From the NCBI GenBank assembly GCA_041667185.1, contig JBAYFM010000004.1:9097-73096 (forward strand): a stretch of 64,000 nt of DNA. The letters run 5' to 3'. Of the stretch, positions 545-26,030 are shown piece after piece. Both the position numbers and the translations under genes were made by a program. Under the pieces are notes generated by a model that was not told where the DNA came from, did no database searches, and saw nothing but the letters and a program-made list of their open reading frames with translations. Origin of the DNA: Patescibacteria group bacterium. Lineage in GTDB: Bacteria; Patescibacteriota; Patescibacteriia; SG8-24. How positions within the stretch are numbered: the stretch's first letter is position 1; every line of letters starts with the position of its first letter.

Positions 545-600
545 GAGAGTGAGGGAGTGCAGGAGTGCAGGAGTGCTGAAGTGCGGGAGAGACGGAGTCA
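545..600. repeat. Intergenic repeat locus A, (A)GGAGTGC octamer-like units plus a GAGACGGAGTC unit
   Basis: gagtgagggagtgcaggagtgcaggagtgctgaagtgcgggagagacggagtca. Same unit family recurs at 2763-2853, 8651-8775, 13676-13720, 13890-13950 and 25925-26030. Confidence 0.6.
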
Positions 601-828
601 TGTCGCTCGCGAGCGATGTGGCAGGCCGAGTGATTGGTTATATAAAAGTTGTCGAAATCGTTATTGCCGGGCGAGACCCACACCACAAGGACGCTGTAAA
701 TTCGGAGGTGCCCGGTGGCGTAAGCCGAGCCCGGGATTGCTTCGCTCCGCTCGCAATGACGGAAAAGGAAAGAGCCTGCTTCGTAAGGAAGCAGGCTCTT
801 ATAGAGGCGGGTTGAGATCAGGAAGGAA

Positions 829-1440
829 CTATTCCAGGTTGGCCATGTTGCCGGCTGGCGTGATGTTGCAAGCCGCATCGAAAGTGACGCGAATGCTGCA
901 AGACGGATTCACACCAGTGACCATCTCCCGAGTCGAGGCATTCCACCAGTTGCACTGGATGAACGCACGCGCCTCAGAGGTCATCGCCTTGAGCTGGTCG
1001 ATGTCACCGAACTGGGCCCAAGCTTCGTTCGGAGACTGAGTCGAACAGTTCTGCCAGCCGACGTAGCTCAGGTTGTAGGTGCCAGCGTCCGGGGCGTCCG
1101 TGAAAGCCATGCCGATGTAGCCGGAGTTATCCGAATCGAGCATGTGCGGGCCGTCGGTCCAGGTGACCGCTGTCGTACCGCGGATGTCGCCACGGAGCTC
1201 GCCACAGGTCGAACCTGACACGTAGGCAGAGCTGAAGTCCAGGACGCAAGCCGTCGGGGACTTGAAGGGAGCGGGCATGACGACTGCGGGCGTGACGGGG
1301 TCGACTGGGTCGACCGGGTCAACGATGTCAACGCAGTCCGTGCAAGCGCTGTCTTCATCCCCACTTTCCTGCACGCCGCAGGCGGTGAAGCTGAAGGTTG
1401 CACACAGGGCAACGATCGCGATCCAGAGATTCGTCTTCAT
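829..1440 (-). CDS. Putative lipoprotein, hypothetical
   Basis: Signal peptide with lipobox-like ...FSFTAC, then a VDPVDPVDPV repeat. No recognisable catalytic motifs. Confidence 0.5.
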   Translation of the reverse strand: MKTNLWIAIVALCATFSFTACGVQESGDEDSACTDCVDIVDPVDPVDPVTPAVVMPAPFKSPTACVLDFSSAYVSGSTCGELRGDIRGTTAVTWTDGPHMLDSDNSGYIGMAFTDAPDAGTYNLSYVGWQNCSTQSPNEAWAQFGDIDQLKAMTSEARAFIQCNWWNASTREMVTGVNPSCSIRVTFDAACNITPAGNMANLE

Positions 1441-1530
1441 GATTGATCTCCTCTTTCTGGGAATTGCAGCGGTTCTCTGAATTTGTCGGCGAGGGCGATC
1501 ACCATGACCGCCCTCGCCAAGATCTGAGCA

Positions 1531-2397
1531 CTATGGCAACTCGAGACGGAGCAGGACCTGGCTCCCGAACGCGAACGCCGGGCAGCCGGAGTCGAACTCC
1601 GAACCGAGACGACCGGAGACGCCGACCTGGACCAGCTTGTGGCTGAATACCAGACCGAAATCTCCCGTGACGAACGCCGACTTAGCTTTGAGCTGGTTAT
1701 CGTAACCAACCCAGCTGGAGCCGACGCCGCCTTCGATCGCGAACCAGTCGTTCGCCGTCCAGGACAAGCCGCCGCGGACCTGAGTCCCGACACGGGCATT
1801 GCCACCGGACACGAGCGCATTGGCGTCGAAATCGATATCCCAGGAGTCCGTCAGGTTGAGCGTCAGACGAGTGCCGACCGGCAGACCAGTGTAGGTCGTA
1901 CCGTCGGACGAGCGCAAGACGAGAAACCCGCCCTGCGGCCCGATCTTCACACCACCCTTGCGTTCCATGACGTTCAGGCGGCTGTCGATCTCTCTGATTC
2001 TCTCCATGAGCGCGTACAACTGCTGCGCGAGCTCGACGTAATCCTTGGCCGTAGCCTGGTTGAGCCGATCCAACTCGCCGCGGAGCCGCGCAATCTCAGT
2101 CCGGACCGACGCCGCGATGGCGTTCTGATCCGCGCCCGGCTTCTTCTTGCCGAGCAATCCGACCTGCTTGCGCAGTCCGGAGATCTGATCTTCGAGGACC
2201 GTCACGCGCCTCGCGAGCGAGGCGATGCGATCATCGGCGCGAACCTTGGCGGTCGCGGTGCAACCAGCGAGACATCTTGCCGCTTCCGGCGGCAACACCA
2301 TCCGGAATTCGGACAGCGTATTGCTCTCATCGGCCGAGACCTTCCCGGCCCAAGCAAGAACCGCAGCGCAAGCGACCAATGTGCTGACCTTTTTCAT
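1531..2397 (-). CDS. Secreted coiled-coil / beta-rich protein, hypothetical
   Basis: Internal start MKKVSTLVACAAVLAWAGKVSA (signal peptide) preceded by GAGGAG 6 nt upstream of the ATG. Central heptad-like region (LRKQVGLL..., LRGELDRLNQ). Confidence 0.5.
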   Translation of the reverse strand: MKKVSTLVACAAVLAWAGKVSADESNTLSEFRMVLPPEAARCLAGCTATAKVRADDRIASLARRVTVLEDQISGLRKQVGLLGKKKPGADQNAIAASVRTEIARLRGELDRLNQATAKDYVELAQQLYALMERIREIDSRLNVMERKGGVKIGPQGGFLVLRSSDGTTYTGLPVGTRLTLNLTDSWDIDFDANALVSGGNARVGTQVRGGLSWTANDWFAIEGGVGSSWVGYDNQLKAKSAFVTGDFGLVFSHKLVQVGVSGRLGSEFDSGCPAFAFGSQVLLRLELP

Positions 2398-2762
2398 GAC
2401 CGTCTCCTCTCGCCCCGACATGGGGGCATTGTGAAATGCCCTTGCGGGGCGGTTTGATACTGGATTCCTTTTGATCTCAACTTGTAATGAGCAACGCCTC
2501 GTTGAAACGAGACGCTAAGACCGTTTGACGTAACCGACGAAGAGAAGGAGGAGGTATCTTCGCTGGTCTGTCAAACGGTCCCAACGTCCCGGTCAGGACC
2601 TCTGCTACCTTCAAATGAACGAATAAATGTAACATAATCCGGGTGTTTTGTCAAGGGTGGCGGACAGCCATAACTAGCGCAGAATTACGGGTAATTAAAG
2701 CTGGATTGCCGGCTAAAATCAGCCGCAACCCAGCTTTTTTGCCTTATGAGCTGCGGAAATTA

Positions 2763-2853
2763 GGGAGTTTGTGAGAGTGCAGGAGTGCGGGAGACCGACC
2801 ATCTCCCTGACTCCGTCTCTCCCAAACTCCCGAACTCCCTGACTCCGTCTCTT
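2763..2853. repeat. Intergenic repeat locus B, same family as 545-600, with 9-bp inverted repeat arms GGGAGTTTG/CAAACTCCC
   Basis: gggagtttgtgagagtgcaggagtgcgggag...ctccctgactccgtctctcccaaactccc...ctccctgactccgtctc. Confidence 0.6.
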
Positions 2854-2948
2854 TTCTTCAGCCCCAGCTGGAGCTGAAATTTCCTACCGGAGACTAAAAA
2901 ACCCGCTTCTTCAAGCGGGAGGGCAGCCTGATGACCCGAGGTCTGGAC

Positions 2949-3590
2949 TCAAACTATCGCAGCCGGAGTCTCGTAGAGATCATGGCGGCTGGCGACAACA
3001 AGCACCTGGCCGGCGCCAGCGATGAGGCCGAGAACGAAGCCGGCGAAAGCATTGGCGGGGATATTGGGTTTGACCGGGTACTTGGACTGCAACGGCTGAT
3101 CCACCAGTTTCACCTGAAGATCACCGCCGCCGACATACTGCCAACCCTCGGTCGTAAGGACGAACGCGATGGCGCGGGCGATCTGCGTGGCTTGTGCGGG
3201 ATCGGTGTGATAGACGGTGACGACGAGCATGCCGGAGCCGCTGACGACCTGGGTCGCGATCATCTGATCCCACTGTTTGCGCTTCTTGGTCTCATCGGTC
3301 TTGAAGATGGTCCGGTCGATGTTGAACTGCGTGGCCAGAACCTTCTCGAAGAACGAGGTCGTGTAGATGATCTGGCCCAGATTGTCCGACAGCCGCTCCG
3401 AAGCTTTCATGGCGGTGTAAGGATCGGACTGCGACAACTGCTTCTGAATGATGAGCAGACGCATGGTGGAACTGTAGCGCAGAGGGAAAACGAAACTCAG
3501 GCCGGCTCCGAAAATAGCCGCCAAAAGGCCGAAAAGCACGATACGCTTCCAGCCGCCGGACAAGGCCCGAGTGTATTGGTAGTCTTCCAT
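2949..3590 (-). CDS. Wzz-like polysaccharide chain-length determinant (short form)
   Basis: N-terminal TM (IVLFGLLAAIFGAGLSFVF), a ~140-aa extracytoplasmic domain and a C-terminal TM (FAGFVLGLIAGAGQVLVV). This matches PCP/Wzz topology. Family assignment is by architecture only. Confidence 0.45.
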   Translation of the reverse strand: MEDYQYTRALSGGWKRIVLFGLLAAIFGAGLSFVFPLRYSSTMRLLIIQKQLSQSDPYTAMKASERLSDNLGQIIYTTSFFEKVLATQFNIDRTIFKTDETKKRKQWDQMIATQVVSGSGMLVVTVYHTDPAQATQIARAIAFVLTTEGWQYVGGGDLQVKLVDQPLQSKYPVKPNIPANAFAGFVLGLIAGAGQVLVVASRHDLYETPAAIV

Positions 3591-3643
3591 ACCTTAATTT
3601 TACACGAAAAACCCGGCCAGCGCCACTCCAGGCACCGCTGGTC

Positions 3644-4843
3644 CTACCTGCCGGAATTGCCGCCGAGCACGACCTCGACGGTGATGAGAGCGCCGTTGCG
3701 AGCGACTGACAGCAGACCGCCGGGGAAAACACCGCGCCGGACCACCAGACTGACGCGGTCCTGCGGATCGTATTCGGAGATGATCTCAGAGAGAGTCCGC
3801 TTGGCGGTCACGTCATCGCTGTCGACGGAGACGATGATGTCGCCGGCGCGCAGACCAGCCTCGGCGGCAGGACTGCGTTTGGCCACGGCCGGGATCGAAC
3901 CGTCGGCCGAACCGAAAACCAGGGCGCCCTTATGCAAGAAATCGCGATCATCATTCAGTCCGACCAGGCTCCCCAGATCGAGATAATGGACGCCGAGCAG
4001 CGGCCGATCGATATTCTGGTTGCCGAGGATGGCGCTCATGCGATCAATGAAAGAGTCGAGCGGCGCCGCCAGGAGACCAGGCTCGACCAGACCGCCGAAA
4101 ACTGCCACGGCCTCGCCGCGGCGATTGAAGATCATCGCTCCGGGCATGGGAGTCTCGCCCTGCAGACGCAGATAACGGCTCAAAACCTCCGAGGAAAACA
4201 AGGGCCCGTGACCGGACGCGTCGGCCGGAGCGCCGAAACCGAGCATACTCAGATGCCGGGGTCCGAAGCCGGCATCGAGCGTATAGACGCTCTCCCCCGG
4301 GACTAGGGCGGCGGCATCGCCGAAAGACACGACCGGCAGATCCGCGGCGGCGATCTTGGCGAAAACGACGCCCGAATAAGAATCGCGCAGGACCCGCTCG
4401 ACCGCGTAGACCCGACCGCCGACCAGGGCGGCGAGATCTTTGGCTGGCTTGCCTTTGACGGCGACGAGCGCCTGACTGCCGGTGAGCAGCCAGCCGTCGG
4501 AAGTCAGCACGGCGCCGCTGGCCAGGGCCTCGTCCGGAAGATACGCATCCGCCAGCGGATCGCCGGAAACGGACTTGGCCGCGAAGAACAACACAGCTGA
4601 TTGATCCGCGATGACCGGCGCATCAGCTTCAGCGCTGTCAGAACCGAGCCGGGCCGCCGTACCGCGATCACGCCAAACCGTGAGCGTGGATGCCGACCCG
4701 CTGTCGGCCGGCAACAGATACGTCGCAGACAGCAGGCCGCCAACCAGACCGGCGGCGAAACCGAAAAAGACGCTGCTCACGAAGAACGGGGTCCAGCCGG
4801 ACCGCGTCAATTCGATAACGCCGTGTTTTTTGGGCCACATCAT
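3644..4843 (-). CDS. HtrA/DegP-like trypsin-fold protein with C-terminal PDZ domain; catalytic Ser and His apparently absent
   Basis: N-terminal TM and a trypsin-like core. C-terminal PDZ (GALVFGSADGSIPAVAKRSPAAEAGLRAGDIIVSVD). The position of the GNSGGPL Ser motif reads PGAMIFNRRGEAV, and the His-motif position reads LTGSQALV. Confidence 0.55.
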   Translation of the reverse strand: MMWPKKHGVIELTRSGWTPFFVSSVFFGFAAGLVGGLLSATYLLPADSGSASTLTVWRDRGTAARLGSDSAEADAPVIADQSAVLFFAAKSVSGDPLADAYLPDEALASGAVLTSDGWLLTGSQALVAVKGKPAKDLAALVGGRVYAVERVLRDSYSGVVFAKIAAADLPVVSFGDAAALVPGESVYTLDAGFGPRHLSMLGFGAPADASGHGPLFSSEVLSRYLRLQGETPMPGAMIFNRRGEAVAVFGGLVEPGLLAAPLDSFIDRMSAILGNQNIDRPLLGVHYLDLGSLVGLNDDRDFLHKGALVFGSADGSIPAVAKRSPAAEAGLRAGDIIVSVDSDDVTAKRTLSEIISEYDPQDRVSLVVRRGVFPGGLLSVARNGALITVEVVLGGNSGR

Positions 4844-4853
4844 AAAATAGTGA

Positions 4854-5642
4854 TCAGAACCAACCGGCGGTCGCCAGGAGAACAGCGATCGACAGGAAGG
4901 ACAGCGCCAGTTCGCGCCGAAAATAACGAACCTCGCCCGCGCCCCGCATGATCATCCGGACCACATACAAGGAAACGGCGAAAAGAATGATATTGACCGT
5001 GGCGTTGACCAGGCTGCCGGTGGGCAAAAAGGAAAAGCCGACGTAAGCCTGAAATTCCAGGGCGCCGAAAACCACGACCACGACCGGAAGTTCCGCCGAA
5101 GATAATCCGAAACCAGCCAAGCTCTCGCCGGCCAACCCGGCGACCAAAGCAGCGGCCGCGAGACCGAGCAATGGCATGGAAATGTAATAATAAGAGTTGA
5201 TGCCGTACAAAAAAGCCAGGAACAGGAACAAGCCAGCCAAACCGACCAAATTAGCCAGATAAGCCAGAGCCGGATCATCCGGCGACTCATCGGACAAGAC
5301 CGAGCGCACCTGGCTCAAATGGGATCCGACCAGCGCCGTAACGACCGCCGCGAGGAGATAACTGCCGACTGTTGATTCGATGATCAACAGATAACCGAAG
5401 CTGGAGATGAGCAGGACGAAGGACGGCAGACAAGCACGCCAGAGCCGCCACGGACGCGCCGCGCCCATACCGAGCCAAAGGATGGCGGCTGTGAAGACCG
5501 CCAGCGCCGCACCCAAACAGACCGCCCAGATGACGATGGCGACGGACAAGTGGCGCGCCGGCAACCAGATGGCCGCGACCAGGGCGGCGCCGATCAGGAT
5601 CGCGACGACCGCGGGCAGATCGCGGAAAGATATCTTAGGCAT
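4854..5642 (-). CDS. Polytopic membrane protein, hypothetical
   Basis: Eight or more hydrophobic helices; no recognisable motifs. Confidence 0.45.
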   Translation of the reverse strand: MPKISFRDLPAVVAILIGAALVAAIWLPARHLSVAIVIWAVCLGAALAVFTAAILWLGMGAARPWRLWRACLPSFVLLISSFGYLLIIESTVGSYLLAAVVTALVGSHLSQVRSVLSDESPDDPALAYLANLVGLAGLFLFLAFLYGINSYYYISMPLLGLAAAALVAGLAGESLAGFGLSSAELPVVVVVFGALEFQAYVGFSFLPTGSLVNATVNIILFAVSLYVVRMIMRGAGEVRYFRRELALSFLSIAVLLATAGWF

Positions 5643-5658
5643 AGATCAGGCGAAAACG

Positions 5659-6384
5659 TCAGCGCGGAACATAATGGATGAGAAAGCGCATCCGGCCTGG
5701 TTCGAGGACGATCGAATTCAGTCCGCCGAGACCGGACATGGCCGAAGTCAGAGCCTCCCCGATCACCCGATCCAGCACGGAAGCGAAAAGTCCGGACAAA
5801 CCGTCGGGAATATCGAGAGCGCCGAGGCGGAGACCGGTGACCTTGATCTTGAGCTGGCCATTCTGGACCACGGGTTCGATATCGGCTCGAACGGTCGCCT
5901 GCCGATCAGGACGGTCGATCAAACCATAAAACTCGAGATGTCCGGGATCGACAGCAATCTGGGTGCCGCTCAAAGCAACCGGCAACTGGGCGCCGGCCGC
6001 AGCCAAGGATCCGCGGATAATGGTCGTGAGCTCGGCTTCGCTGAAACTGATCTCCAGCGACTGCAGCAGGGCGTCGTATTTGGACTTAAGCGCCGCGGTT
6101 TTGGCGATCTGCTCCCCGGTCGAGCCGACGAGCGGCAGGACCTGGCGCGCAGGCTGCGATGGTTCGTACAACCAGCCCGTCAGGACCGGGACCGTGACCA
6201 GACCGGTCTTCGCGACCAGGGCGGCCGAAAGCAAGAGCGGCACGGCAACAGCCAAAAGTTCCAGCACCAAGCAGCCGGCGCAACCCAAAAGCTTCTTGCG
6301 GCGCTGTTCGTGATGGATCTCCGTGAGGATCTCTTTTTTGAGCGCCTCGCGATCCGACTGATCTTCGTTCTCGATCCTGGTCAT
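5659..6384 (-). CDS. Single-pass membrane protein, hypothetical
   Basis: Charged N-terminus, one TM (LVLELLAVAVPLLLSAALVA) and a ~180-aa extracytoplasmic domain. Confidence 0.45.
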   Translation of the reverse strand: MTRIENEDQSDREALKKEILTEIHHEQRRKKLLGCAGCLVLELLAVAVPLLLSAALVAKTGLVTVPVLTGWLYEPSQPARQVLPLVGSTGEQIAKTAALKSKYDALLQSLEISFSEAELTTIIRGSLAAAGAQLPVALSGTQIAVDPGHLEFYGLIDRPDRQATVRADIEPVVQNGQLKIKVTGLRLGALDIPDGLSGLFASVLDRVIGEALTSAMSGLGGLNSIVLEPGRMRFLIHYVPR

Positions 6385-6411
6385 AATGGATGCGACAAAC
6401 CGGCGGCGGAT

Positions 6412-6870
6412 CTATTGGATCAGCCAAGAATTTTCACCGAGCAGATCGCGGGTATTCGCGAGCACCAACTTCTGGTCGGCTTTGGAGCCTGACATGGCCC
6501 GACGCCATTGTTCGAGCAGCAGGACGCAGGACAGGTGGATGTTCTGGTCCGCTCCGGGGACACGGAGGCGCAACAGCCGCTCCTGGGTCTTATCGATGAG
6601 ATCGACGAAGATCGGATCGATCGCGGTGAACGCGGTCTCGTCCAATTTCTGCGCCTGAACAAAAAATGGCGTCAGGACCGAACCGGCGGCAGTGCGGTAT
6701 TCAGCTTCGCTGGGAGCAGTCACAACTTCGGACGCCGGAGCTTCGGCAACGGGCAAAACCCGCAGATTCAGAACGCCGTAACCGATGCCCGCGATCACCG
6801 CCAGGCCGAAAACCGCGAAGACGGCGAACCGGTTGATGAGCCGATGTTTTTTCTCATCCATAATAGCCAT
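6412..6870 (-). CDS. Membrane-anchored hypothetical protein
   Basis: N-terminal TM (FAVFAVFGLAVIAGIGYGVL) followed by a soluble domain. Confidence 0.4.
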   Translation of the reverse strand: MAIMDEKKHRLINRFAVFAVFGLAVIAGIGYGVLNLRVLPVAEAPASEVVTAPSEAEYRTAAGSVLTPFFVQAQKLDETAFTAIDPIFVDLIDKTQERLLRLRVPGADQNIHLSCVLLLEQWRRAMSGSKADQKLVLANTRDLLGENSWLIQ

Positions 6871-6947
6871 AATATAACAACATCCAGCGTCTTGGTCAAA
6901 GCCTTGACCGCGCCTTAAAAAACGCTCAATTGAGCCGCGCTAGGCGG

Positions 6948-8057
6948 TCAGTCGCGGTCTGAAGCGGCAGCCTCGCGCTGCGGCCGCTCCCAGCGGTCTC
7001 CCCGATCGACATTCCGATCGTCGATTCCCGTATCATTGTCGCCATCTTCCCGCAGCGTTTCCCGGCCGCGCGAATGCTCCGGCCATTTCTGGTCCGCGCT
7101 GATCAGCATCTTGGCCTGCTGGGCTTGCCGGCCGGCTTCCTGGAACACAGCGAAGGCTTCATTGAATTTTTCCACGATCATGGCTGCGCGGCCGGAACTG
7201 ACGGCGGCTTCGGCTAGAGCGATCAATCCGCCGGCCTGGTCGATGGTCTTCACGGTCAGACGCGATCGATCCTCTGCGAACTTTTCTTTCACCGCGGTCA
7301 ATTTCTTCTCAGCGTCGGCCAAGCTGGCCTCGGCGGCCCGGCGGTTGTCGGGAACGGTCACAGCCTGCTCCGAATCGGAGCGGCGGACAGCGGCGCGGCC
7401 AGCCTGTTTCTCGGCGGTCTTGATGACATTCGCGGCACCGACGGCGCGCCGATCGTCGGGCTCGGACAACCGGCCGATGACCGCCGCATGGCCGCGCAAC
7501 GCGCTCTCCAGTTCTGAACCCAACTCAGCCGCCTCGCGGGCGTGGCCGCCGCGATCGATCTCAGCCAGATGTTCCTCGGCGCTGGCTGCGTGGGCGTTGA
7601 TCCGCTCTTCGATGATGGCGGCCTTGTCCGCATCAAGATCGCCGGCGTCAGCCAGAACCTCGGCTTCTTCGAGCCGACGCTCGGCGCGGCGCGTTTCCCA
7701 GCGGACCTGGGCTTCCGGAGTGACCGCCAAAGCCGAAACAACCTCTTCATTAACAGCTAATTTGAAGCCGTAAAGCGCATCGCCAGGCATCGCGCTTTCA
7801 GCGGCATAAGAGACTCCGGCGCTACCCACCAGAATCGCGACAATCATGGCCGCGGCCAGGACCGGACGGGCCGAAGACCGCAGTGCGAACGCCGACTGCC
7901 GCCAGAACCCGAGCCAGGCGGCGATAAAATTTTCGGACGCGCCGGCCCGCGGACTGGCCGCGTATTCGACCAGACGGACGCGAAGAAACTCGCGTTCGGC
8001 TTCGGTCAGAGCGACGCGTTTCGATCGTTCAGAAATATTATTCAGCAGATCTTCCAT
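6948..8057 (-). CDS. Putative anti-sigma factor (membrane-anchored, extracytoplasmic coiled-coil domain)
   Basis: Immediately downstream of the ECF sigma gene and overlapping it by 20 nt. N-terminal cytoplasmic segment, one TM (AAAMIVAILVGSAGVSYAA) and a long Ala/Glu/Arg-rich helical domain. Confidence 0.5.
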   Translation of the reverse strand: MEDLLNNISERSKRVALTEAEREFLRVRLVEYAASPRAGASENFIAAWLGFWRQSAFALRSSARPVLAAAMIVAILVGSAGVSYAAESAMPGDALYGFKLAVNEEVVSALAVTPEAQVRWETRRAERRLEEAEVLADAGDLDADKAAIIEERINAHAASAEEHLAEIDRGGHAREAAELGSELESALRGHAAVIGRLSEPDDRRAVGAANVIKTAEKQAGRAAVRRSDSEQAVTVPDNRRAAEASLADAEKKLTAVKEKFAEDRSRLTVKTIDQAGGLIALAEAAVSSGRAAMIVEKFNEAFAVFQEAGRQAQQAKMLISADQKWPEHSRGRETLREDGDNDTGIDDRNVDRGDRWERPQREAAASDRD

Positions 8058-8592
8058 AGCGCGTTTTATCCAGCGTGAATTCTTTCTTCAAAGTCGCGAC
8101 GGCGCGATTGATCCGGACCGAGACGACGTTCTCAGACAGACCGGACAACCGGGCGATCTCCTGCGGACCCAGCCCTTCGAGAAAACGATGTTTCAGGACG
8201 TCGCGGAAGGCCGGTTTCAGACGGTCGATCGCGGCGACGACGCGGGCCGTTTCCGCGAGCTGCTCGGCGGAACCGGATGCGCCGGTCGGATCAAAACCCT
8301 GTTCGAGCAGCGCTTCAAGCGAGTCCGTCTGATGACGACGGCCGGCGTCGATGGCCAGGTTGGTCGCGGTCCGATAAAGGAAGGCTTTGATGTTGCCGAT
8401 CTCGCCGCCGCGGCACAGGTAGTCCCAAGTCTTCATGAAACAATCCTGGACCAGATCACGAGCCTTCTCGCGATCGTAGACGCGAAAATAACAGTGCCTG
8501 AAAATGGCGTCAGCGAGCTCGTCGTACGCCTTGATGAACTGAGCCTGGTTGTCCCCGCTCGTTGGATTCATCGTAATAATATGACGTTTCAA
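8038..8592 (-). CDS. ECF-type RNA polymerase sigma-70 factor
   Basis: Region 2 (FIKAYDELADAIFRHCYFRV, DLVQDCFMKTWDY) and region 4 HTH (LGPQEIARLSGLSENVVSVRINRAVATLKK). Confidence 0.8.
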   Translation of the reverse strand: MKRHIITMNPTSGDNQAQFIKAYDELADAIFRHCYFRVYDREKARDLVQDCFMKTWDYLCRGGEIGNIKAFLYRTATNLAIDAGRRHQTDSLEALLEQGFDPTGASGSAEQLAETARVVAAIDRLKPAFRDVLKHRFLEGLGPQEIARLSGLSENVVSVRINRAVATLKKEFTLDKTRYGRSAE

Positions 8593-8650
8593 GCAGCCTT
8601 ATCTTACAGGGCTGATAGGATAATTTAGCTTGGATGGAGGGGGAAAGCAA

Positions 8651-8775
8651 GGGAGCAGGAGATGCGGAGTCAGGGAGAGACGGAGATGCGGAGATACGAA
8701 GTGGCGGAGTCAGGGAGTTTGAGAATGCTGGATTCCCGCCTACGCGGGAATGACAAAAAGAGAGTGCGGGAGTGG
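8651..8775. repeat. Intergenic repeat locus C (GGAGTCAGGGAG / GAGATGCGGAG units) with hairpin attcccgcctacgcgggaat
   Basis: gggagcaggagatgcggagtcagggagagacggagatgcggag...ggcggagtcagggagtttgag...agagtgcgggagtgg. Confidence 0.55.
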
Positions 8776-8783
8776 TCGGACCA

Positions 8784-9065
8784 TCAGTCGAGATGTCTAT
8801 AACCTAAACGCGAAAAAGTCACGTCCAGTTGTTTTTTCAAAGCAGCCCGACCATTACCGCCTTTCAGATATCGTTCCCGCCGTGCGGCCTCAATTCTAGT
8901 CAAATAAGCCTCGTAATAGATCAACTTCAGCGGCCGCCGGTCTCTGGTCGATCTCACCATGCCCGTACGATGCTGACACCAACGTCTGCGCAGGTCGTCC
9001 GTCAGACCCACATAAAGCTGCCGATCCTTCACGCTAAATAATACGTATACGTAGACGTAATGCAT
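8784..9065 (-). CDS. Small GIY-YIG (URI-domain, YhbQ-like) nuclease
   Basis: YVYVLFSVKDRQLYVGLTDDLRRRWCQHRTG...KLIYYEAY...RERYLKGGNG: GIY-YIG motifs with the conserved Arg and Glu. Confidence 0.8.
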   Translation of the reverse strand: MHYVYVYVLFSVKDRQLYVGLTDDLRRRWCQHRTGMVRSTRDRRPLKLIYYEAYLTRIEAARRERYLKGGNGRAALKKQLDVTFSRLGYRHLD

Positions 9066-9291
9066 ACCGCGTTTCCTACCATAAGGCCAAAATCAGGTAA
9101 AGCGCCAAGCTGAGCTCGGAAAATACAAAAAACCAGCCGGTGTTACCCGGCTGATTCCCACCACTGAACTCGGCTCGAGCGTTGCAGTGGGCCAGCTCAG
9201 CTGGCCGCACCTCGCTCTGATCGCTCGGTTGTTTCATCAGAGAATGCGAAGCTGAGCTTCGCCTTCATCTTTTGAAACCGAGCTGAGCTCG

Positions 9292-9420
9292 GTGGTGGAG
9301 ATGGGGAGATTTGAATCCCTCGCTCCGACTCGGGCCCCGGGGCGCTGCGCACCGGTCCGCCCGCTAGCGGGCGGACCTCTCGCGCCCGAGTTCAAATCTC
9401 CCCCATAAAACAAAAGCGGA
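9292..9420 (-). repeat. Partial duplicate of the tmRNA 3' end (T-loop, acceptor 3' strand and CCACCA, 23 nt identical) fused to a structured element with the 24-nt perfect palindrome GGTCCGCCCGCTAGCGGGCGGACC
   Basis: Reverse strand reads GGGGGAGAUUUGAACUCGGGCGCGAGAGGUCCGCCCGCUAGCGGGCGGACC...GAGGGAUUCAAAUCUCCCCAUCUCCACCA. A 13-bp outer inverted repeat GGGGAGAUUUGAA/UUCAAAUCUCCCC encloses the palindrome. The 3' 23 nt are identical to the genuine tmRNA end at 9445-9467. Confidence 0.6.
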
Positions 9421-9444
9421 CGACTAGCGTCGCCCACTTTTGAT

Positions 9445-9836
9445 TGGTGGAGATGGGGAGATTTGAACTCCCGTCTGGCGAGGTATTTCCCGACACTTCT
9501 ACAAGCGTATTCCGTTTGGTATTTCGGCTCGGCGGTGAGAAACGGAATAAACCCGCCGGACCTATCCCCTGCAATGGTCGGCCTGTCCGCCGGGGCCGCG
9601 GTCAGGCTCTGTCCGATAGATGACACCGGGATCCCGCTTATCGGACGTCAGCGGGGCCGATGGGTTCGCGCGTTACGCGAGAACCGGAGCGAATGAAGGC
9701 GCGAAGGCGTTAGCCAGGGCGGTCTTCACCCGATTGACCAAGTTTGCACTTGTTCAGTATCCGTTGATTTACGAGGTAACGGACGTCCTCGGCTCGCATG
9801 CCGTGAAAAAAACTCCCATCGATGCCTGGCATCCCC
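9445..9836 (-). ncRNA. ssrA: tmRNA (ssrA), standard one-piece
   Basis: On the reverse strand the 5' end GGGGAUGCCAGGCAUCGAUGGGAG pairs with the 3' end ...GACGGGAGUUCAAAUCUCCCCAUCUCCACCA. Acceptor stem is 7 bp with G3:U, the T-arm is GGGAG/UUCAAAU/CUCCC, and CCA is encoded. The putative tag frame is GCA AAC UUG ... GUU CUC GCG UAA, giving ANLVNRVKTALANAFAPSFAPVLA*. The gene is directly downstream of smpB and is followed by a hairpin plus U-tract. Confidence 0.8.
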
Positions 9837-9909
9837 AGGCGGCTGATTGGCTGCTTAGCTGACGGCTCATGGCCAATGGCCAACTGCTATCAGCTATCGG
9901 GCTAACCAG

Positions 9910-10350
9910 CTACTTCATCGCGCGGCGCACCTCCCTATCAAGCTCGCGCCTCTTGATCGTCTCCTTTTTCTCATACTGCTTCTTGCCGCGCGCCAGACCG
10001 AACTCTAATTTGATGCGCGACCCCTTAGTATAAGCAGAAAGAGGCACTAAAGTCAATCCTTTCTGCTCCATTTTTCCCATAAGTCTCAGCAATTCCCGCT
10101 TGTGGAGCAAGAGTTTGCGCGTGCGCCGGGCGTCATACCCCGGCAGCGGTCCGGCTTTGGGGAAAGGCGGGATCTGAGCATTCATGAGCCAGGCCGAGCC
10201 GCGATTCAGGGTCACGAATGATCCGGTCAGGCTCATCTTGTCGTCGCGAACGGACTTGACCTCGTGACCCAGGAGCTCCAAACCAGCCTCGAACTTCTCG
10301 AGGATCTGATAGTCATAATGCGCTTTTTTGTTCTCGGCCAATCTGGGCAT
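9910..10350 (-). CDS. smpB: SsrA-binding protein SmpB
   Basis: HYDYQILEKFEAGLELLGHEVKS...GSFVTL...AWLMNAQIPPF...RTRKLLLHKRELLRL, with a Lys/Arg-rich C-terminal tail. Confidence 0.9.
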   Translation of the reverse strand: MPRLAENKKAHYDYQILEKFEAGLELLGHEVKSVRDDKMSLTGSFVTLNRGSAWLMNAQIPPFPKAGPLPGYDARRTRKLLLHKRELLRLMGKMEQKGLTLVPLSAYTKGSRIKLEFGLARGKKQYEKKETIKRRELDREVRRAMK

Positions 10351-10410
10351 AAAATTCGGCTATCCGCACTGTAACACCGAACACTCCCCCGCTCAATGCC
10401 GCGGCTGGCG

Positions 10411-12297
10411 TCATTCGACCGGGACCGTCGGATCGTCCGCGATGAGGCCGCGATCCTTGAGGACGGAAAAACGGTGCGCGACGAACCCTTGGTAATCAGC
10501 GCTGCCCGGGACGAGGTCGTAACGCATGGCGCGCGTGAGATCGTCCAGCGAGCGCTGGCTGTCGGCCGTGGCCTCGATGGCGCGGGCGGCCTTGGCATAA
10601 AGAACGTTCGCAACGAACTGGCGCAGCGCGGGCTGATCCGCGAGTTCGGCTTCGGCGGGCAGGACTGGCGGTTCGAAACCCGGACCAGGATCGCGGCGCG
10701 TGCCGTCACGCAGGAACTCGAAATGCAAACCGTCGGCGCGCGACCGCCAGCCGGACACCAGCGAATCCGCGGCGAAAGTGAGGAAGAGCGGCCGCCCGGC
10801 GAAACGCTCGTCAGCCAGGACCGCCGCGAGCAGCCGCTTCTGCTCGACGCGCAGATTCGCGTCGTCATACGGCACCGGCAACACCGGCGTCGTGAAGCAG
10901 CTCATGCCGGAATCCTCGACGATCGTCACGTCGGGACGCAGATGCTCGACGACGCGCAGATAAGCCAAAGAGAGAACAACCGTGTCGTGGGTGAAGACGC
11001 CGCCTTTGACCACGAGCACCGCGTCCGGCGGCAAAGTTTCGAGAACGCGGCGGCTGTAAGCCTCCACGAAACCGTCGGAATAAGCCGCGACCTGGACCAG
11101 ATTGTTCGCGATGAACAGGATGGGCAGCGCCAAAAGAAAGACCGCCGCGGCCAGCCGCAAGAACAGCCGCCGCCCGGGCTCAGTGAGCGATCGCACGGCC
11201 GCGGCCGCGCCGACGGCAGCCAAGACAGCCAGGAACAAGTAGCCGCCGACCGAGTAGACCCGCGCCAGATATTCAGTAGTCTCGTTCAGGGCGGAAGCGC
11301 GCAATAATTGGGTGAGCGGCGCTCCGAAAACTATGCCGAGCGACGCCAGACCCGCGACCCAGGCGACCCGAAGACGGCGCGTCCGCAGCAGCAGGAAACC
11401 ACCGACGGCGGCCAAGCCGATCACGAGCGGACCGAGATAGACGGCGAGATGCCAGAAAGACACTCCGACCAGACTAATCTTGTTGTAGGACAACAGGCCG
11501 AAATCCTGATGGCGGCGGAACACCAGGTCCAAAAATCCGCTCAAGCCTTCAGCCGGCTGAAAGATGAAAGGCGCTCCAAGCCAGGCAGCCAGCGGCAGAT
11601 ACAGATACGGTGAGAGACCGAGCGCCAAGCCGCCGACGGCCGAGCGCCAGGCGTGACCAGATGTCCATGCGCGCAGCTCAATCAAAACGGCGGCGAGGAT
11701 GACGAGCGGCAAGGACGCGGCGGCCAAAAAAAGGTGGTTGGCGCCGGCCAGGCCGACGAATAAGAAAAACCAGAAGAGCCGACGAGGGCTGGAAGCCGCG
11801 GCGTAACGGATCAGCATGACCACGACCAGGGAGAGCAGCAAGGCGTGCAGCGGGTAGACCTGGGCATAGAGCGCCTGACCCCACCAGACGCTGGAATACG
11901 CCGCTTGCAGCAATATCGAGGCGATGGCGATCTTCTCCAGCCAGCTCACGCTCCCCCGAAGCGCGAGATAGGCGCGCTCGGCGATCCAGTAAGCCGCGGC
12001 CACGGCAGCGGCGGCGCAGACGGCGGAGAACAACGCGATCCGCCAGGGTATCGTCCCGAACGGCAGCCAGGAAAAGACGTGAGCCAGAAGCACGTAAAGC
12101 GGGTAGCTTGAGGGATGCGGGATCCCCAAAACCGCCGCGACCGTGACGAACTCGCCGCTGTCTTCGAAGGACACCGTGCGCGGCAGGGTCGGCAAATAAG
12201 CCGCCAAAGACAAAACGAACAAGACGACCGGAACAAAGACGGTCGAACGCCCCAGATCAGCCAATTTCTGCCTCAATCGATCCATATCACTGCCCAT
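10411..12297 (-). CDS. Large polytopic membrane protein, DUF2723/GT-C-like (putative glycosyltransferase, PMT-like)
   Basis: Twelve or more TM helices. N-terminal motif SFEDSGEF in the first loop resembles the catalytic-loop DE motif of GT-C/PMT-like families. Family assignment is from memory of the motif only. Confidence 0.5.
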   Translation of the reverse strand: MGSDMDRLRQKLADLGRSTVFVPVVLFVLSLAAYLPTLPRTVSFEDSGEFVTVAAVLGIPHPSSYPLYVLLAHVFSWLPFGTIPWRIALFSAVCAAAAVAAAYWIAERAYLALRGSVSWLEKIAIASILLQAAYSSVWWGQALYAQVYPLHALLLSLVVVMLIRYAAASSPRRLFWFFLFVGLAGANHLFLAAASLPLVILAAVLIELRAWTSGHAWRSAVGGLALGLSPYLYLPLAAWLGAPFIFQPAEGLSGFLDLVFRRHQDFGLLSYNKISLVGVSFWHLAVYLGPLVIGLAAVGGFLLLRTRRLRVAWVAGLASLGIVFGAPLTQLLRASALNETTEYLARVYSVGGYLFLAVLAAVGAAAAVRSLTEPGRRLFLRLAAAVFLLALPILFIANNLVQVAAYSDGFVEAYSRRVLETLPPDAVLVVKGGVFTHDTVVLSLAYLRVVEHLRPDVTIVEDSGMSCFTTPVLPVPYDDANLRVEQKRLLAAVLADERFAGRPLFLTFAADSLVSGWRSRADGLHFEFLRDGTRRDPGPGFEPPVLPAEAELADQPALRQFVANVLYAKAARAIEATADSQRSLDDLTRAMRYDLVPGSADYQGFVAHRFSVLKDRGLIADDPTVPVE

Positions 12298-12482
12298 GAT
12301 ATAACAAACCGCGGCAACTGGTAACTAGCAACCAGTCACTAGTGACTAGTCGCTGGTGGCTCGCGGGCTTTACAGTTGTCCAAAAATGGCCTAAGATAGC
12401 CTCCATAATCAACGTAGTCATCTTAACCCCCACGGCCTTGCGCATCTCCAGGAGACGTTTCAAACCCAAGGAACCAGCAGTC

Positions 12483-12986: not shown

Positions 12987-13082
12987 TATCCTGGCGTTGC
13001 CGCTCAGCGCGGCTGGCGGGCCCAGAGCCCGTTTTAATGCCTTTTGAGAAGCGGACGAGATCACGAACCGCTGACCAACGTT

Positions 13083-13262: not shown

Positions 13263-13289
13263 CGCCGCCAACCGTAACACCGAACTGTT

Positions 13290-13637: not shown

Positions 13638-13648
13638 GTGACGCAGAA

Positions 13649-13678
13649 AAAACCGCCCTTAACGGGGCGGTTTTTTGA
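13649..13678 (+). terminator. Rho-independent terminator after rplT
   Basis: aaaaaaccgcccttaacggggcggtttttt. Confidence 0.75.
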
Positions 13679-13720
13679 GAGACGGAGTGCTGGAGAGACG
13701 GAGTGCAGGAGTCCGGGGAT
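13676..13720. repeat. Intergenic repeat locus D (GAGACGGAGTGC units)
   Basis: gagagacggagtgctggagagacggagtgcaggagtcc. Confidence 0.55.
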
Positions 13721-13745
13721 ACGTTCGCGAACGACGCATCTCCGT

Positions 13746-13782
13746 CCTTCGGTGTCAGGCACCTGGAGTGCCTGACACCGAA
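13746..13782. promoter_or_regulatory. 16-bp perfect inverted repeat hairpin (cttcggtgtcaggcac / gtgcctgacaccgaag, loop ctgga); related motif repeated at 13828-13850
   Basis: Direct reading; ggtgtcaggcac occurs three times in 13746-13850. Confidence 0.5.
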
Positions 13783-13889
13783 GCATCATCAAATGAGCTT
13801 AAAAATGATGCCATGACCTAGGGTGCCTGTCCCCTCGGTGTCAGGCACCGGGGACGGACCGCCTTTCGCGGCCCGGCGGTTTTCTTTAC

Positions 13890-13950
13890 GAACGGGAGAG
13901 TGCCGGAGTGCTGGAATGCCGGAGGGCTTCGTCACTCCCTGACTCCGTAA
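13890..13950. repeat. Intergenic repeat locus E
   Basis: gggagagtgccggagtgctggaatgccggag...cactccctgactccgta. Confidence 0.5.
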
Positions 13951-14090
13951 CTTTATCACTCCCAATCTTGACAAACCGCCTTATTTCTGCTATAGTTAGC
14001 CGTTTCAAGAATTGTGCTTGAAACCAGGCCAAAATTTCAGTTCGTTGAAAATTCACGGAACGATCAACCCTTTCAGAAGAGGAGAACGTC

Positions 14091-14459: not shown

Positions 14460-14546
14460 TCATCGCCTCGCGGGAACCTGCCGACCGCCGGCCAACCGCC
14501 GGCCTCGGCAGTCTCCATCCGCCGAGCAAAACGAAAGGAACGGGTC

Positions 14547-15377: not shown

Positions 15378-15544
15378 GTCCAGTTCGGTCCCTCACTAGC
15401 CGCCGAGCTCTCAGCTCGGCGGTTTTTCTTATCCGAGCGCGCGGAACCGGCTCTGCCAGGCCGGGGTCTTGATGAAAAAACGTAAATAGTCTACGATACT
15501 TTTGCTAAAAGCAGCGGTAGCACATCCGACAACTGATCGCGCGT

Positions 15545-15611
15545 GGGTCCGTGGTGTAGCCCGGTTAACACGGGCCGCAGTACTGCGGCCAGACCGAGGG
15601 TTCGAATCCGC
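15545..15611 (+). pseudogene. Pseudo-tRNA copy 1, derived from tRNA-Asp. The anticodon arm is replaced by the 18-nt perfect palindrome GGCCGCAGTACTGCGGCC, and the copy is truncated in the T-arm by the GIY-YIG ORF.
   Basis: GGGTCCGTGGTGTAGCCCGGTTAACACG is identical to the 5' half of tRNA-Asp at 15970. The palindrome then occupies 15573-15590, followed by AGACCGAGGGTTCGAATCC. Preceded by the same 25-nt leader (acatccgacaactgatcgcgcgtgg) as the real tRNA-Asp. Confidence 0.65.
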
Positions 15612-15869
15612 ATGATAACCACCCTTTACGTCATCAAAAATACAAAAGGCAACTACTATATCGGAGTCACTGGAGATATTCACCGGAGACTGATCGAACA
15701 CAATTCGGGAACAAGTCTTGCTACCAGAGGAAGGGGTCCGTGGAAACTGGTGTATACGGAAACTTTCCTTTCGCCGCAAGAGGCGAAAAAACGCGAGTAT
15801 CAGATCAAGCAAAAGAAACGGAAATCATACATTGATTGGTTGATAAATGCGCGTGGGTCCGTGGTGTAG
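15612..15869 (+). CDS. Small GIY-YIG (URI-domain, YhbQ-like) nuclease, second copy
   Basis: MITTLYVIKNTKGNYYIGVTGDIHRRLIEHNSG...WKLVYTETF...EAKKREYQIKQ. The ATG starts 2 nt after the T-loop of pseudo-tRNA copy 1, and the stop TAG lies inside the D-arm of pseudo-tRNA copy 2. Confidence 0.75.
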   Translation: MITTLYVIKNTKGNYYIGVTGDIHRRLIEHNSGTSLATRGRGPWKLVYTETFLSPQEAKKREYQIKQKKRKSYIDWLINARGSVV

Positions 15870-15914
15870 CCCGGTTAACACGGGCCGCAGTACTGCGGCC
15901 AGACCGAGGGTTCG
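15856..15914 (+). pseudogene. Pseudo-tRNA copy 2 (5' acceptor, D-arm, palindromic arm, partial T-arm GAGGGTTCGATGCC)
   Basis: Same as copy 1 up to the T-loop; no acceptor 3' strand. Confidence 0.6.
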
Positions 15915-15969
15915 ATGCCAATCATCCTGATCAAAACAGAGGTCGTACATCCGACAACTGATCGCGCGT

Positions 15970-16047
15970 GGGTCCGTGGTGTAGCCCGGTTAACACGTCT
16001 CCCTGTCACGGAGAAGACCGAGGGTTCGAATCCCTTCGGACCCGCCA
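15970..16047 (+). tRNA. tRNA-Asp (anticodon GUC)
   Basis: Acceptor GGGTCCG/CGGACCC. D-arm GTGT-AGCCCGGTTA-ACAC. Anticodon arm TCTCC-CTGTCAC-GGAGA. Variable region AGACC. T-arm GAGGG-TTCGAAT-CCCTT. Discriminator G and encoded CCA. Confidence 0.85.
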
Positions 16048-22855: not shown

Positions 22856-22902
22856 AAGATGAACGGATGACGCCAGCCCCGGCGGCCGGCGTCGTTTTTT
22901 AT

Positions 22903-24354: not shown

Positions 24355-24528
24355 AAGGCGGTTGAGGCAGGCTGTCTGTGAGGTTGCGTCCGCCGAGCTT
24401 AGCTTCAGCGCGACTTCTCGAATAATTATACCAAAAATCAGCCTCCGGCAGAATGGCTGTCTGTCTTCTGACGGATACAAAAACCACCGAGCTGATCTCG
24501 GTGGTTCGCCATTATGCAATCTCTGCGC

Positions 24529-25770
24529 TTAACCCATCTTGCGCCTGATGAAGGCTGGGATCTCCAGATCCTCTTCGGCCGCCGGTTCTTCAGCCCGATT
24601 ATCCCGGATGCCGGCCAGGACGCGTTTGACGAATGGAGCGGTCGACGCAGCCTGTTCGGCGGCTGCCGGAGCGGCTTCCGCCGCTTTGACCTTGACCGTC
24701 TGGCGCGGCTGTTCTTCAACAGCCGCGGCCGAAGCGCGGCCGTCCTTGGTCAGAAAACGATTGGCCGAATAGCCAGCCTGGTCAGCGGCGCCTTTTTCCT
24801 GGCGCAACATCTTGCGCTCGCCGTCGAATCCGGTCGCGATGACGCAGACCTTGACCTCGTCCTTCATGGATTCGTCGATGACCGTGCCGAAGATGACCTT
24901 GGCGGTCTCATGGGCGTTCGAGGTGATGATCTTGGCCGCCTCCGAAACCTCATGCATGCCGAGCTTGCTGCTGCCGGTGATGGTAAAGAGAACGCCACGA
25001 GCCCCCTCGATCGAAACCTCGAGCAGCGGGCTTGAAACGGCGCGTTTAGCGGCCTCCACGGCCCGATTCTCGCCGGAAGCGCGACCGATGCCCATGAGCG
25101 CGGTGCCGGAACCGTTCATGATCGCCCGGACATCGGCGAAATCGACATTGATGAGTCCGGGAACGGTGATGACCTCGGAAATGCCCTGAACACCCTGGCG
25201 CAACACGTCGTCAACGGTCTCAAAAGCATCCAAAAGCGAAGTGTTCTTATCGACGATCTGCAACACGCGATCGTTCGGGATGGTGATGATGGTATCGACC
25301 TGATTGGCCAGTTCGGCATGAGCGCGTTCGGCGATATCGCGGCGCTGGGCGCCTTCGAAACTGAACGGTTTCGTGACCACGGCGACGGTGAGGGCCCCGA
25401 GATCGCGGGCGATCTCCGCGACGAGCGGCGAGCCGCCGGATCCGGTGCCGCCGCCGAGACCGCAGGTGATGAAGACCATGTCCGCGCCCTTGAGCGCGTC
25501 ACGGATCTCGTTCTGGCTCTCTTCGGCAGCCGTGCGCCCCAGTTCCGGATTCATGCCGGCGCCGAGACCGCGCGTCGCGGCCTTGCCGAGATGGATCTTC
25601 TGCGGCGCCTGCGAGTAATGCAAAGCCTGCACGTCGGTATTGGCGGCGATGAATTCAACGCCCTTGATCTTCGACTGGATCATCCGGTTGACCGCGGAAT
25701 TACCGCTGCCGCCGATGCCGATCACTTTAATCTTGGCGAACGTTTCGATTGCTGGTTTGACCTCGGCCAT
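24529..25770 (-). CDS. ftsZ: Cell division protein FtsZ
   Basis: [17 protein letters not shown] and [18 protein letters not shown] tubulin signature. Confidence 0.95.
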
Positions 25771-25924
25771 AAAAAAATGTGGTTGTCGCGTCCCCGCGCC
25801 TGGCGCGCACGGATCGTCTTCGGGGTGATTATTGCTTCGCTAAAACTATAGGCGAGGACGCACTCACGTGTCAAGGCAAAAATCCGCCAAATGAACACAA
25901 AAAATGTTCATTTTGTCCCCAGTG

Positions 25925-26030
25925 GTTGCGCGAGAGAGACGGAGTCAGGGAGTTTAAGAGTGCGGGAGTTCAGGAGTGCTGGAGTGCTGAAGGATGCCGG
26001 AACTTCCCCGCTCCTCAACTCCCCCACTTC
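25925..26030. repeat. Intergenic repeat locus F between ftsA and ftsZ
   Basis: gagagacggagtcagggagtttaagagtgcgggagttcaggagtgctggagtgctgaagg... Confidence 0.55.

Follow-up and report, generated by a model that had tools for sequence, protein, structure and literature searches.

The window analysed here is a stretch of 64,000 nucleotides (nt) from a Patescibacteria group bacterium (assembly GCA_041667185.1, contig JBAYFM010000004.1, positions 9,097 to 73,096), and it matches an 80.4-kb ENA metagenome contig, k141_1525303 (ERZ27249449), on which every coordinate equals that of the window plus 9096. Five spacers in its first 26 kb, next to genes such as those for an ECF sigma factor, rplT, ftsA and ftsZ, hold arrays of a short G-rich repeat. 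An earlier note had described this repeat as a dispersed family at six loci, and arrays were found at all six, with refined limits of 543-600 (locus A), 2763-2851 (B), 8651-8785 (C), 13677-13747 (D), 13893-13963 (E) and 25931-26034 (F). Based on the observations below, we consider it fairly probable that the arrays are a selfish or neutral, lineage-specific, non-coding mosaic repeat family, akin to repetitive extragenic palindromes (REP), bacterial interspersed mosaic elements (BIME) and MITEs, the miniature transposable elements with inverted repeats.

The repeat unit at all six loci is a strict octamer, N-GGAG-NNN, with the core G(G/A)AG. Tandem Repeats Finder (TRF) gives a period of 8 or 16 nt at six of six loci, a 16-nt super-unit being seen at some of them, and no other period-8 array in the 64 kb exceeds 2.2 copies; units earlier given as 7-8 nt thus repeat strictly every 8 nt. 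In the window the phased pattern GGAGN4GGAGN4GGAG occurs 11 times, always within the six loci, against 0.03 expected from dinucleotide shuffles, and the composite CGGAGTCAGGGAG six times against 0.13. The bare heptamer GGAGTGC is only weakly enriched (17 against 9 expected) and its count is reached in 3 of 100 shuffles. Since hits to the phased pattern lie far above chance and those to the heptamer barely do, the enrichment signal resides in the phased arrays and not in the word. The strings quoted earlier are present, among them the reverse-complement CTCCCTGACTCCGTCTC (two copies) and the short inverted repeats GGGAGTTTG/CAAACTCCC at locus B. All six loci lie between called genes, in agreement with the statement that none is in coding sequence, and loci B, D and F adjoin intrinsic terminators, as had also been described. 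In clustered regularly interspaced short palindromic repeats (CRISPR), direct repeats of 23-50 nt alternate with unique spacers that are similar in length; the units here measure 8 nt and are contiguous, without spacers, and the earlier exclusion of CRISPR is borne out.

The best named homologues of FtsZ and EF-G belong to Patescibacteria, Candidatus Uhrbacteria and Candidatus Magasanikbacteria, which places the host, with a GC content of about 60%, among the Candidate Phyla Radiation (CPR) bacteria. The arrays extend well beyond the window: the 9 kb to its left contain 13 more, at least one in every intergenic region there, and the contig itself terminates in a perfect (TGGAGTGC)9 run. Scanning metagenomes for GAGAGACGGAGTCAGGGAG gave 16 loci, most of them in sample Ga0172379, and as many as eight arrays per 13 kb. 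That these contigs come from a second host species was considered and ruled out: EF-G of the Ga0172379 loci is identical to one in the window's own sample, and the stretches L370 and L132 (such numbers designate further stretches of sequence throughout) are 99.95% identical over 14.5 kb, so the loci L126-L141 are assigned to the window's organism. Its other contigs carry about 50 arrays, seven of them in the S12-S7-EF-G-EF-Tu region, and arrays stand beside rpsL-rpsG-fusA-tuf, dnaA, gyrA, nusA, polA and ndk. In sequence that was not chosen for arrays (73 kb of the contig and 21 kb around fusA), some 18 spacers are occupied, or about one per 5 kb. Copies outside the window might have turned out mostly intragenic, which the earlier note had taken as grounds for giving up the family, and they are not: only 130 of 1980 array bases on other contigs of this organism overlap predicted genes, so that about 93% lie outside, and most of that overlap is probably due to open reading frames (ORFs) over-extended at their starts.

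Each array draws on a limited set of modules. A type I array opens with (GT)GAGAGTGC and goes on as (NGGAGTGC)n, and the start motif GAGAGTGC.GGAGT was found 18 times at separate loci. Type II arrays are runs of a 16-nt super-unit, (GGGAGAGACGGAGTCA)n or, differently written, (GGGAGAGAC GGAGTCA)n, with 23 occurrences; the element GGGAGTTTG links type II to type I, and the junction GGAGTCAGGGAGTTT occurs seven times at separate loci. A perfect palindrome of 22-26 nt, (GC)CACGTCGCTCGCGAGCGACGTG(GC), was found 15 times in about 200 kb, always outside genes; it sits within arrays, between fixed flanks of GGAG(C/T) on one side and GCGGAG or GCTCC on the other, and its copies carry symmetric C/T-G/A variants. 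Among units bounded by GGAG on both sides, which were therefore not selected for their own core, the four core positions hold 1.3-1.9 bits each and the other four 0.15-0.8 bits. GAAG is the only common core variant, and the three dominant units in the same tally are TGGAGTGC, CGGAGTCA and GGGAGAGA. A hairpin in the rpsJ-rplC spacer, whose 5' arm is GGGAGAG-NN-GGAG and whose 3' arm is CTCC-N5-CTCCC, looks similar to the type II unit GGGAGAGACGGAG and is conserved in three related genomes (L368:14470-14520, L369:5885-5940, L370:15815-15880); it might be the seed of the array family or a chance likeness. That spacer, about 330 nt long, is conserved as a whole and may be a ribosomal-protein leader.

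Thirteen copies are foldbacks, in which a G-rich arm, a short centre and a C-rich arm follow one another, while more than half of the arrays have no inverted partner. Only two types of centre, each of 9-10 nt, recur: centre 1, GGAG-ATRGTCGGY-CTCC, is present in four foldbacks including locus B, and centre 2, GGAGTGAYGAAGCM-CTCC, in three including locus E. The two arms are mostly of different unit types and pair mainly through GGAGT and ACTCC, giving long imperfect hairpins; some foldbacks have true matching ends, as at L139:7998-8135, GAGAGTGCAGGAGTGC... When folded as DNA and compared with shuffled sequence, locus B is clearly structured (z = -4.1 for 2760-2856), loci E and F are modestly beyond the shuffled range, and the solitary arrays A and C have z values near 0. 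Where an inverted partner lies within 150 nt, the G-arm is 5' and the C-arm 3' in 27 cases to one, a polarity that within this genome is explained by the shared descent of the two centre types.

These recurring composites bear directly on whether each locus is an independent simple-sequence repeat (SSR), raised by local polymerase slippage without copying between loci, a reading we hold to be very unlikely. Perfect tandem runs do exist, long SSRs are intergenic and common in GC-rich genomes (PMC4692102), and many phyla as well as viral contigs have octamer arrays, with many different sequences. Against it, the start motif, the junction of type II, link and type I, the two centres and the 22-nt palindrome recur at unlinked loci, and these common composite junctions largely refute independent origins. 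Long non-tandem composites of this kind at unlinked loci argue instead that blocks have been copied between intergenic sites.

The wider occurrence of octamer arrays was followed by scanning one genome per GTDB species for five consecutive GGAG-N4 units, and among the matches listed such arrays, often followed by an inverted array, come from many phyla, including Cyanobacteria, Planctomycetota, Acidobacteriota, Chloroflexota, Verrucomicrobiota and Bacteroidota. The idea of one universal family of GGAG octamers was rejected as an artefact of the search pattern, the GGAG core being no commoner than GGTG or GCAG: with patterns of ten units, the viral contigs yielded GGAG in 34 stretches, GGTG in 38 and GCAG in 70. 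The cross-phylum arrays are a general phenomenon of long SSRs and not one family. As an observation in its own right, the G-rich arm lies 5' of the C-rich arm in 21 cases to none among the GTDB matches listed (L002-L121); in the viral contigs (L145-L271) the G-arm comes first in 13 cases against 9, and in 11 against 2 if the partner has three units.

The individual loci of the window illustrate how variably the modules are put together. Locus A, between the start of a Wzy_C-like gene (left of 516, - strand) and the terminator of a 203-aa gene (829-1440, -), is a solitary G-strand array on the + strand (543..600; TRF period 8, 4.5 copies) whose units read CGGAGAGTGA GGGAGTGC AGGAGTGC AGGAGTGC TGAAGTGC GGGAGAGA CGGAGTCA, that is, type I and then one type II, and it is abutted by a palindrome module at 599..620, CATGTCGCTCGCGAGCGATGTG, a variant of the consensus CACGTCGCTCGCGAGCGACGTG. 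Locus B, between two unnamed genes and adjoined by a terminator at 2902-2919, is a foldback. Its 5' arm (2763..2793, +) reads GGGAGTTTG TGAGAGTGC AGGAGTGC GGGAG, comprising the link and a type I start; its centre, ACCGACCAT (2794..2802), is in reverse complement ATGGTCGGT, the type 1 centre common to L134, L138 and L141; and its 3' arm (2803..2851) consists of six type II units on the - strand, GAGACGGAGTCAGGGAGTTCGGGAGTTTGGGAGAGACGGAGTCAGGGAG. Locus C lies between the start of an ECF (extracytoplasmic function) sigma gene (8571, -) and the end of a GIY-YIG gene (8784, -). Its G-strand array of about eight units (8651..8729, +) contains GGAGATGC, GGAGTCAG, GGAGAGAC, GGAGATAC and GAAGTGGC, among others, and ends in GGGAGTTTGAGAATGCTGGA; it is interrupted by the hairpin GGATTCCCGCCTACGCGGGAATGAC of a second repeat family (8730..8754, +), and its tail GAGAGTGCGGGAGTGGTCGGACCATC (8760..8785, +), a type I start with a degenerate sequence like centre 1, extends to the GIY-YIG stop codon. 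These small hairpins, GGATT(CCCGC...GCGGG or GC...GC)AATGAC with an A-run behind it, form a family separate from the arrays, with copies at 734-760 and 8730-8754 in the window and at L142:15280-15304 and L142:20292-20328 in its left flank.

Loci D and E share the spacer between the rplT terminator (13653-13665) and a promoter TTGACA-N17-TATAGT at 13968-13996. Directly after the T-run of that terminator begins the G-strand array of locus D (13677..13716, +; TRF period 16, 94% matches), which reads GAGAGAC GGAGTGCT GGAGAGAC GGAGTGCA GGAGTCCG, and as read from the sequence the locus closes at 13720..13747 with a degenerate palindrome, ACGTTCGCGAACGACG, and inverted units, CGCATCTCCGTCC. Locus E (13893..13963, +) is a foldback with the order CGGGAGAGTGC CGGAGTGC TGGAATGC CGGAGG in its type I arm, then centre type 2, GCTTCGTCA, then the C-arm CTCCCTGACTCCGTAAC...CACTCCC, and it ends 4 nt before the -35 box of the promoter. 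Between D and E, at 13745-13850, the spacer downstream of rplT also contains two copies of hairpins with GGTGTCAGGCACC, one of them being the long palindrome CGGTGTCAGGCACCTGGAGTGCCTGACACCG. Locus F is placed between the ftsA terminator, as read from the sequence, and a conserved ftsZ operator and promoter. A short inverted arm, GTTGGAAGTGGGGGAGTTGAGGAGCGGGG on the - strand (26006..26034), stands directly after the terminator, and a long G-arm (25931..25991, +), recognised by matches to the phased pattern and by TRF, reads GAGAGAGAC GGAGTCAG GGAGTTTA AGAGTGCG GGAGTTCA GGAGTGCT GGAGTGCT GAAGG.

Relatives with the same gene order provide a comparison of filled and empty spacers. Two of them, with FtsZ identities of 79% (L122) and 76% (L125, GCA_028714475.1), have no arrays in 21 kb each, and two others, with EF-G identities of 86% (L368) and 88% (L369), have none in 22 and 13.5 kb. 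In the array-less relatives the ftsA-ftsZ spacer passes from the terminator almost directly to a palindrome ATGAACA-N7-TGTTCAT and the promoter, where the window has about 105 nt of repeat in between; the M50-to-S12 spacer upstream of rpsL, which has a foldback here, measures 345 nt against 91 nt in L368, and the distance from stop codon to promoter upstream of rpsL is similarly short in L369. At ndk an array starts at the stop codon and precedes the terminator, and so lies within the 3' untranslated region (UTR). A closer relative, L124 (FtsZ 91%), has a homologous element in its ftsA-ftsZ spacer that is about 65% identical, as counted from the alignment, and differs by a 16-nt indel; operator, promoter and leader next to it show about 90% identity to the window. 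Given this diverged copy and the absence of arrays in the other relatives, the elements appear to be recent, fast-evolving and dispensable sequences, and not conserved regulatory ones. Comparison of filled with empty spacers revealed no consistent direct repeat at the borders, the relatives being too diverged for exact borders. The perfect palindrome ATGAACA-N7-TGTTCAT itself (25891-25911) lies just upstream of the ftsZ promoter TTGACA-N17-TATAGT (about 25845-25875, -), has been conserved in each of the four related genomes, where the spacer otherwise differs, and is probably an operator for a regulator of ftsZ.

The same comparison weighs on the idea that the arrays are phased binding platforms with a host function, in which a DNA-, single-stranded DNA (ssDNA)- or RNA-binding protein, or the anti-Shine-Dalgarno sequence of the 30S subunit, reads GGAG(T) once per 8 nt, so that arrays would act as insulators, back-up terminators, nucleoid sites or stabilisers of mRNA 3' ends. 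The core G(G/A)AG is far better conserved than the other four positions, chains of as many as 13 units stay in phase where the unit type changes, inverted partners are ordered as described above, many copies abut terminators or sit in 3' UTRs such as that of ndk, and AGGAG is the Shine-Dalgarno sequence where the organism uses one. Yet the same spacers are array-free in relatives with the same genes, unit number, order and orientation differ at each locus, a spacing of 8 bp is out of register with the helical repeat of duplex DNA, and the G-arm-first polarity is accounted for by common descent of the two centre types. Nor is there a preference of strand: between tandem gene pairs the G-rich strand is sense in 20 cases and antisense in 18, and a strict terminator lies just upstream of the G-strand start in six cases and of the C-strand start in six. 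Two narrower proposals fell with these counts, namely that the G-arm always follows the T-run of a terminator and that strand bias is linked to transcription. A role tied to the ribosome is marginal, and mimicry of the Shine-Dalgarno sequence as the main role is unsupported, as GGAG precedes the start codon in 9 of 63 genes (window, L142 and L370 starts). Shine-Dalgarno use at these gene starts is low. On balance we regard a binding platform as improbable.

A function as RNA fares worse. The arrays could be small-RNA genes, either GGA sponges of the CsrB/RsmZ type or other structured purine-rich RNAs: most units contain GGA (86% of the middle units tallied), and foldback copies fold stably as RNA, with minimum free energies of -45 to -150 kcal/mol. 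A search of Rfam at the gathering score and at E<=1 returned only tmRNA, tRNAs and two weak, unrelated matches, and nothing for the arrays; the promoter-like sites in window positions 1-16000 include none upstream of an array; orientation is random with respect to genes, and solitary arms are without structure (z about 0). About one locus per 5 kb is far too many for a sponge RNA, and the arrays are not conserved in relatives, so we give small-RNA genes very little credence. Known regulators of this kind, CsrB, RsmY and RsmZ, resemble the arrays in having many closely spaced GGA motifs in non-coding sequence. The arrays differ from them in lacking the structure of a gene with promoter and terminator, GGA in hairpin loops, an Rfam match and conservation, and in numbering tens to hundreds of loci in random orientation. 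Taken together, the absence of strand bias and of Rfam matches and the low use of Shine-Dalgarno sequences argue against a strand-specific RNA role, whether as sponge, Shine-Dalgarno mimic or rut site, and the outcome of these tests fits DNA that accumulates wherever it is tolerated.

Least probable of all, in our view, are self-recognition tags for natural transformation. Like the DNA uptake sequences of Neisseria, the arrays are species-specific and dense and occur as inverted pairs near terminators, and the organism encodes ComEC. Known uptake sequences, in contrast, are single 9-12-mers that are frequent inside genes too, whereas the arrays are tandem and intergenic only and GGAGTGC is not enriched outside them.

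Our literature search found nothing on octamer arrays, on these unit strings or on CPR repeats. Several known repeat systems resemble the arrays in part. In REP sequences and REPINs a conserved GTAG stands 5' of the stem, and the gene for a REP-associated tyrosine transposase (RAYT), a Y1 transposase, is flanked by the repeats. The arrays share with REP, BIME and REPIN elements their extragenic position, high copy number, species specificity and occurrence in both orientations, a frequent location between stop codon or terminator and the next promoter, a tendency to break short-read assemblies, and a mosaic build from a small number of short modules, a GC-rich palindrome among them (CACGTCGCTCGCGAGCGACGTG here). 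That one module has the form of a 20-40 nt extragenic palindrome, though the octamer arrays are not palindromic, and mosaic clustering is evident in the fixed flanks of the palindrome (GGAGC...GCGGAG) and in the recurring link, start and centre motifs. Unlike REP, the bulk of the element is a phased 8-nt GGAG array, the palindrome is flanked by GGAG(C/T) and GCGGAG or GCTCC with no 5' GTAG, no RAYT appears in the Pfam lists of the contig stretches, and the host is a CPR bacterium with a small genome.

G-rich heptamer arrays have been described in Xanthomonas and Nostoc, and little work has been done on SSRs whose units measure 6-9 nt (Rehm et al. 2015, PMC4692102). These heptamer arrays and the short tandemly repeated repetitive (STRR) sequences of heterocystous cyanobacteria are, like the present arrays, intergenic tandems of a short unit, with one unit at many loci, inverted pairs and variable copy number. 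They differ in having a 7-nt and not an 8-nt unit and, for the host, in that ours is not a cyanobacterium; the G-runs here are also too short for the G-quadruplexes proposed for heptamer arrays. The three or more mixed unit types, fixed junctions, centres and palindrome set the present arrays apart from STRR as well, and this build points to copying of composite blocks. BrickBuilt of Porphyromonas gingivalis is a MITE with a 23-nt minisatellite unit and defined leader and tail ends (PMC4596501); there too tandem short repeats make up much of the element, but the arrays have variable ends, arms that are mostly of different unit types, and many single arms. The Foldback transposons of eukaryotes likewise have inverted arms built of short tandem repeats in variable number; in contrast to these and to MITEs, the arrays have no known target-site duplication or autonomous partner.

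Of the three roles offered earlier (REP/MITE-like element, regulator-binding array or purine-rich structured RNA), the first fits best, because the repeats are dispersed, intergenic, in both orientations, mosaic and lineage-specific, with composite junctions that recur from locus to locus and a REP-like palindrome that travels with the arrays. The other two are unsupported, since the spacers of relatives are empty, orientation is random, single arms are unfolded and Rfam is silent. For this REP/MITE-like family we propose that composite blocks would be copied to new intergenic sites by a putative agent acting in trans, a candidate being a hairpin- or ssDNA-dependent transposase of the RAYT or IS200-605 type, with template switching or gene conversion as alternative routes. 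The palindrome module with its symmetric variants is REP-like and suggests an enzyme that recognises hairpins. Arm length varies in steps of 8 nt, and some arrays are perfect runs, namely (TGGAGTGC)9, (TGGAGTGC)13 and (GGGAGAGACGGAGTCA)4, usually at contig ends; these runs, the runs of super-units and the unit-sized indel relative to L124 point to change by slippage. The pattern of 8-nt steps is thus observed and the process inferred: arrays would grow or shrink after insertion through replication slippage in the 8-nt register. Copies would be retained in a neutral zone bounded by stop codon, terminator and the promoter that follows, having no conserved host function, although foldbacks may incidentally form stem-loops in 3' UTRs or insulate.

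A more specific version of this proposal is that the family is a prokaryotic counterpart of Foldback transposons, mobilised through hairpins or ssDNA, with phased GGAG-octamer arms whose register, together with the CACGTCG...CGACGTG palindrome, would be read by a putative enzyme. We offer this tentatively and think it unlikely as it stands, but an enzyme reading both GGAG-N4 and the palindrome would explain the conserved core, the strict phase and the G-arm-first order together.

Several observations weigh against a selfish or neutral mosaic family. Their distribution is clustered: in the region of cell-envelope genes (contig 1-23 kb) no spacer is free of arrays, some 14 spacers elsewhere in the window are free of them though 100 nt or longer, and after the five occupied spacers of its first 26 kb there are 0 arrays between 26 and 64 kb despite several spacers of 100-600 nt, which a wholly neutral spread would not predict. 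The precomputed Pfam lists for 73 kb of the contig and for the other stretches name no transposase, RAYT or further mobilising gene, the genome being incomplete with about 200 kb available, and target-site duplication is not established, the empty sites in relatives being too diverged. Other samples that contain this organism are 100% identical at the arrays and lend no support to ongoing instability. Finally, the conserved GGAG core and strict phase in three unit types could reflect selection for a binding partner.

The window and related contigs contain further repeats and genes of note. An element of about 190 nt with four CCGAGCTGAGCTCGG hairpins and its own terminator occurs in at least three copies of 90-94% identity (window 9104-9292, -; L139:11165-11379; L132:7631-7818), each just downstream of a tRNA or tmRNA-like 3' end; it has no Rfam match, and its three copies show no covariation. 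A second copy of the tmRNA 3' end, TGGTGGAGATGGGGAGATTTGAATCCC (9295-9416), which forms a long hairpin, lies about 125 nt downstream of the tmRNA gene (9445-9836, -) and may have been left behind by an element that once integrated into ssrA; the only Rfam match to the region is weak and RtT-like (25.9 bits, E = 0.39). In the spacer after a tRNA-Leu (58307-58390) a 111-nt unit is repeated in tandem (58567-58765; 1.8 copies, 91% identity), and a 413-nt tandem duplication of 89.6% identity was found at L370:3533-3945 and 3961-4373, where both copies contain a 95-aa ORF and share its AAGGAGTCCGAATC leader. Window positions 30684-42323 (-) hold a single ORF, about 3880 aa long, that matches T4SS_pilin, Big_5, DUF4215 and TIG, and its position is conserved in L122 and L125.

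The usual picture of CPR (Patescibacteria) genomes is one of small size and streamlining. In this case a single CPR species has about one intergenic region per 5 kb filled with private repeats and its relatives with the same gene order have none, and some spacers have grown as a consequence, as upstream of rpsL. What is notable in the family is its build from octamer arrays and its high density in a CPR genome; otherwise it is most economically read as one of the REP/BIME/MITE kind. The arrays explain recurrent assembly breaks in the metagenome-assembled genomes concerned (both ends of contig L144 fall inside arrays, A and C), and they are species-specific markers. The cross-phylum polarity bias of inverted octamer arrays can be tested on public genomes. 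For the organism itself, filled and empty spacers side by side make up a system for studying the invasion of a minimal genome by short repeats, and if it is true that a dedicated enzyme reads the 8-nt GGAG register, this would be a new mechanism of mobilisation.

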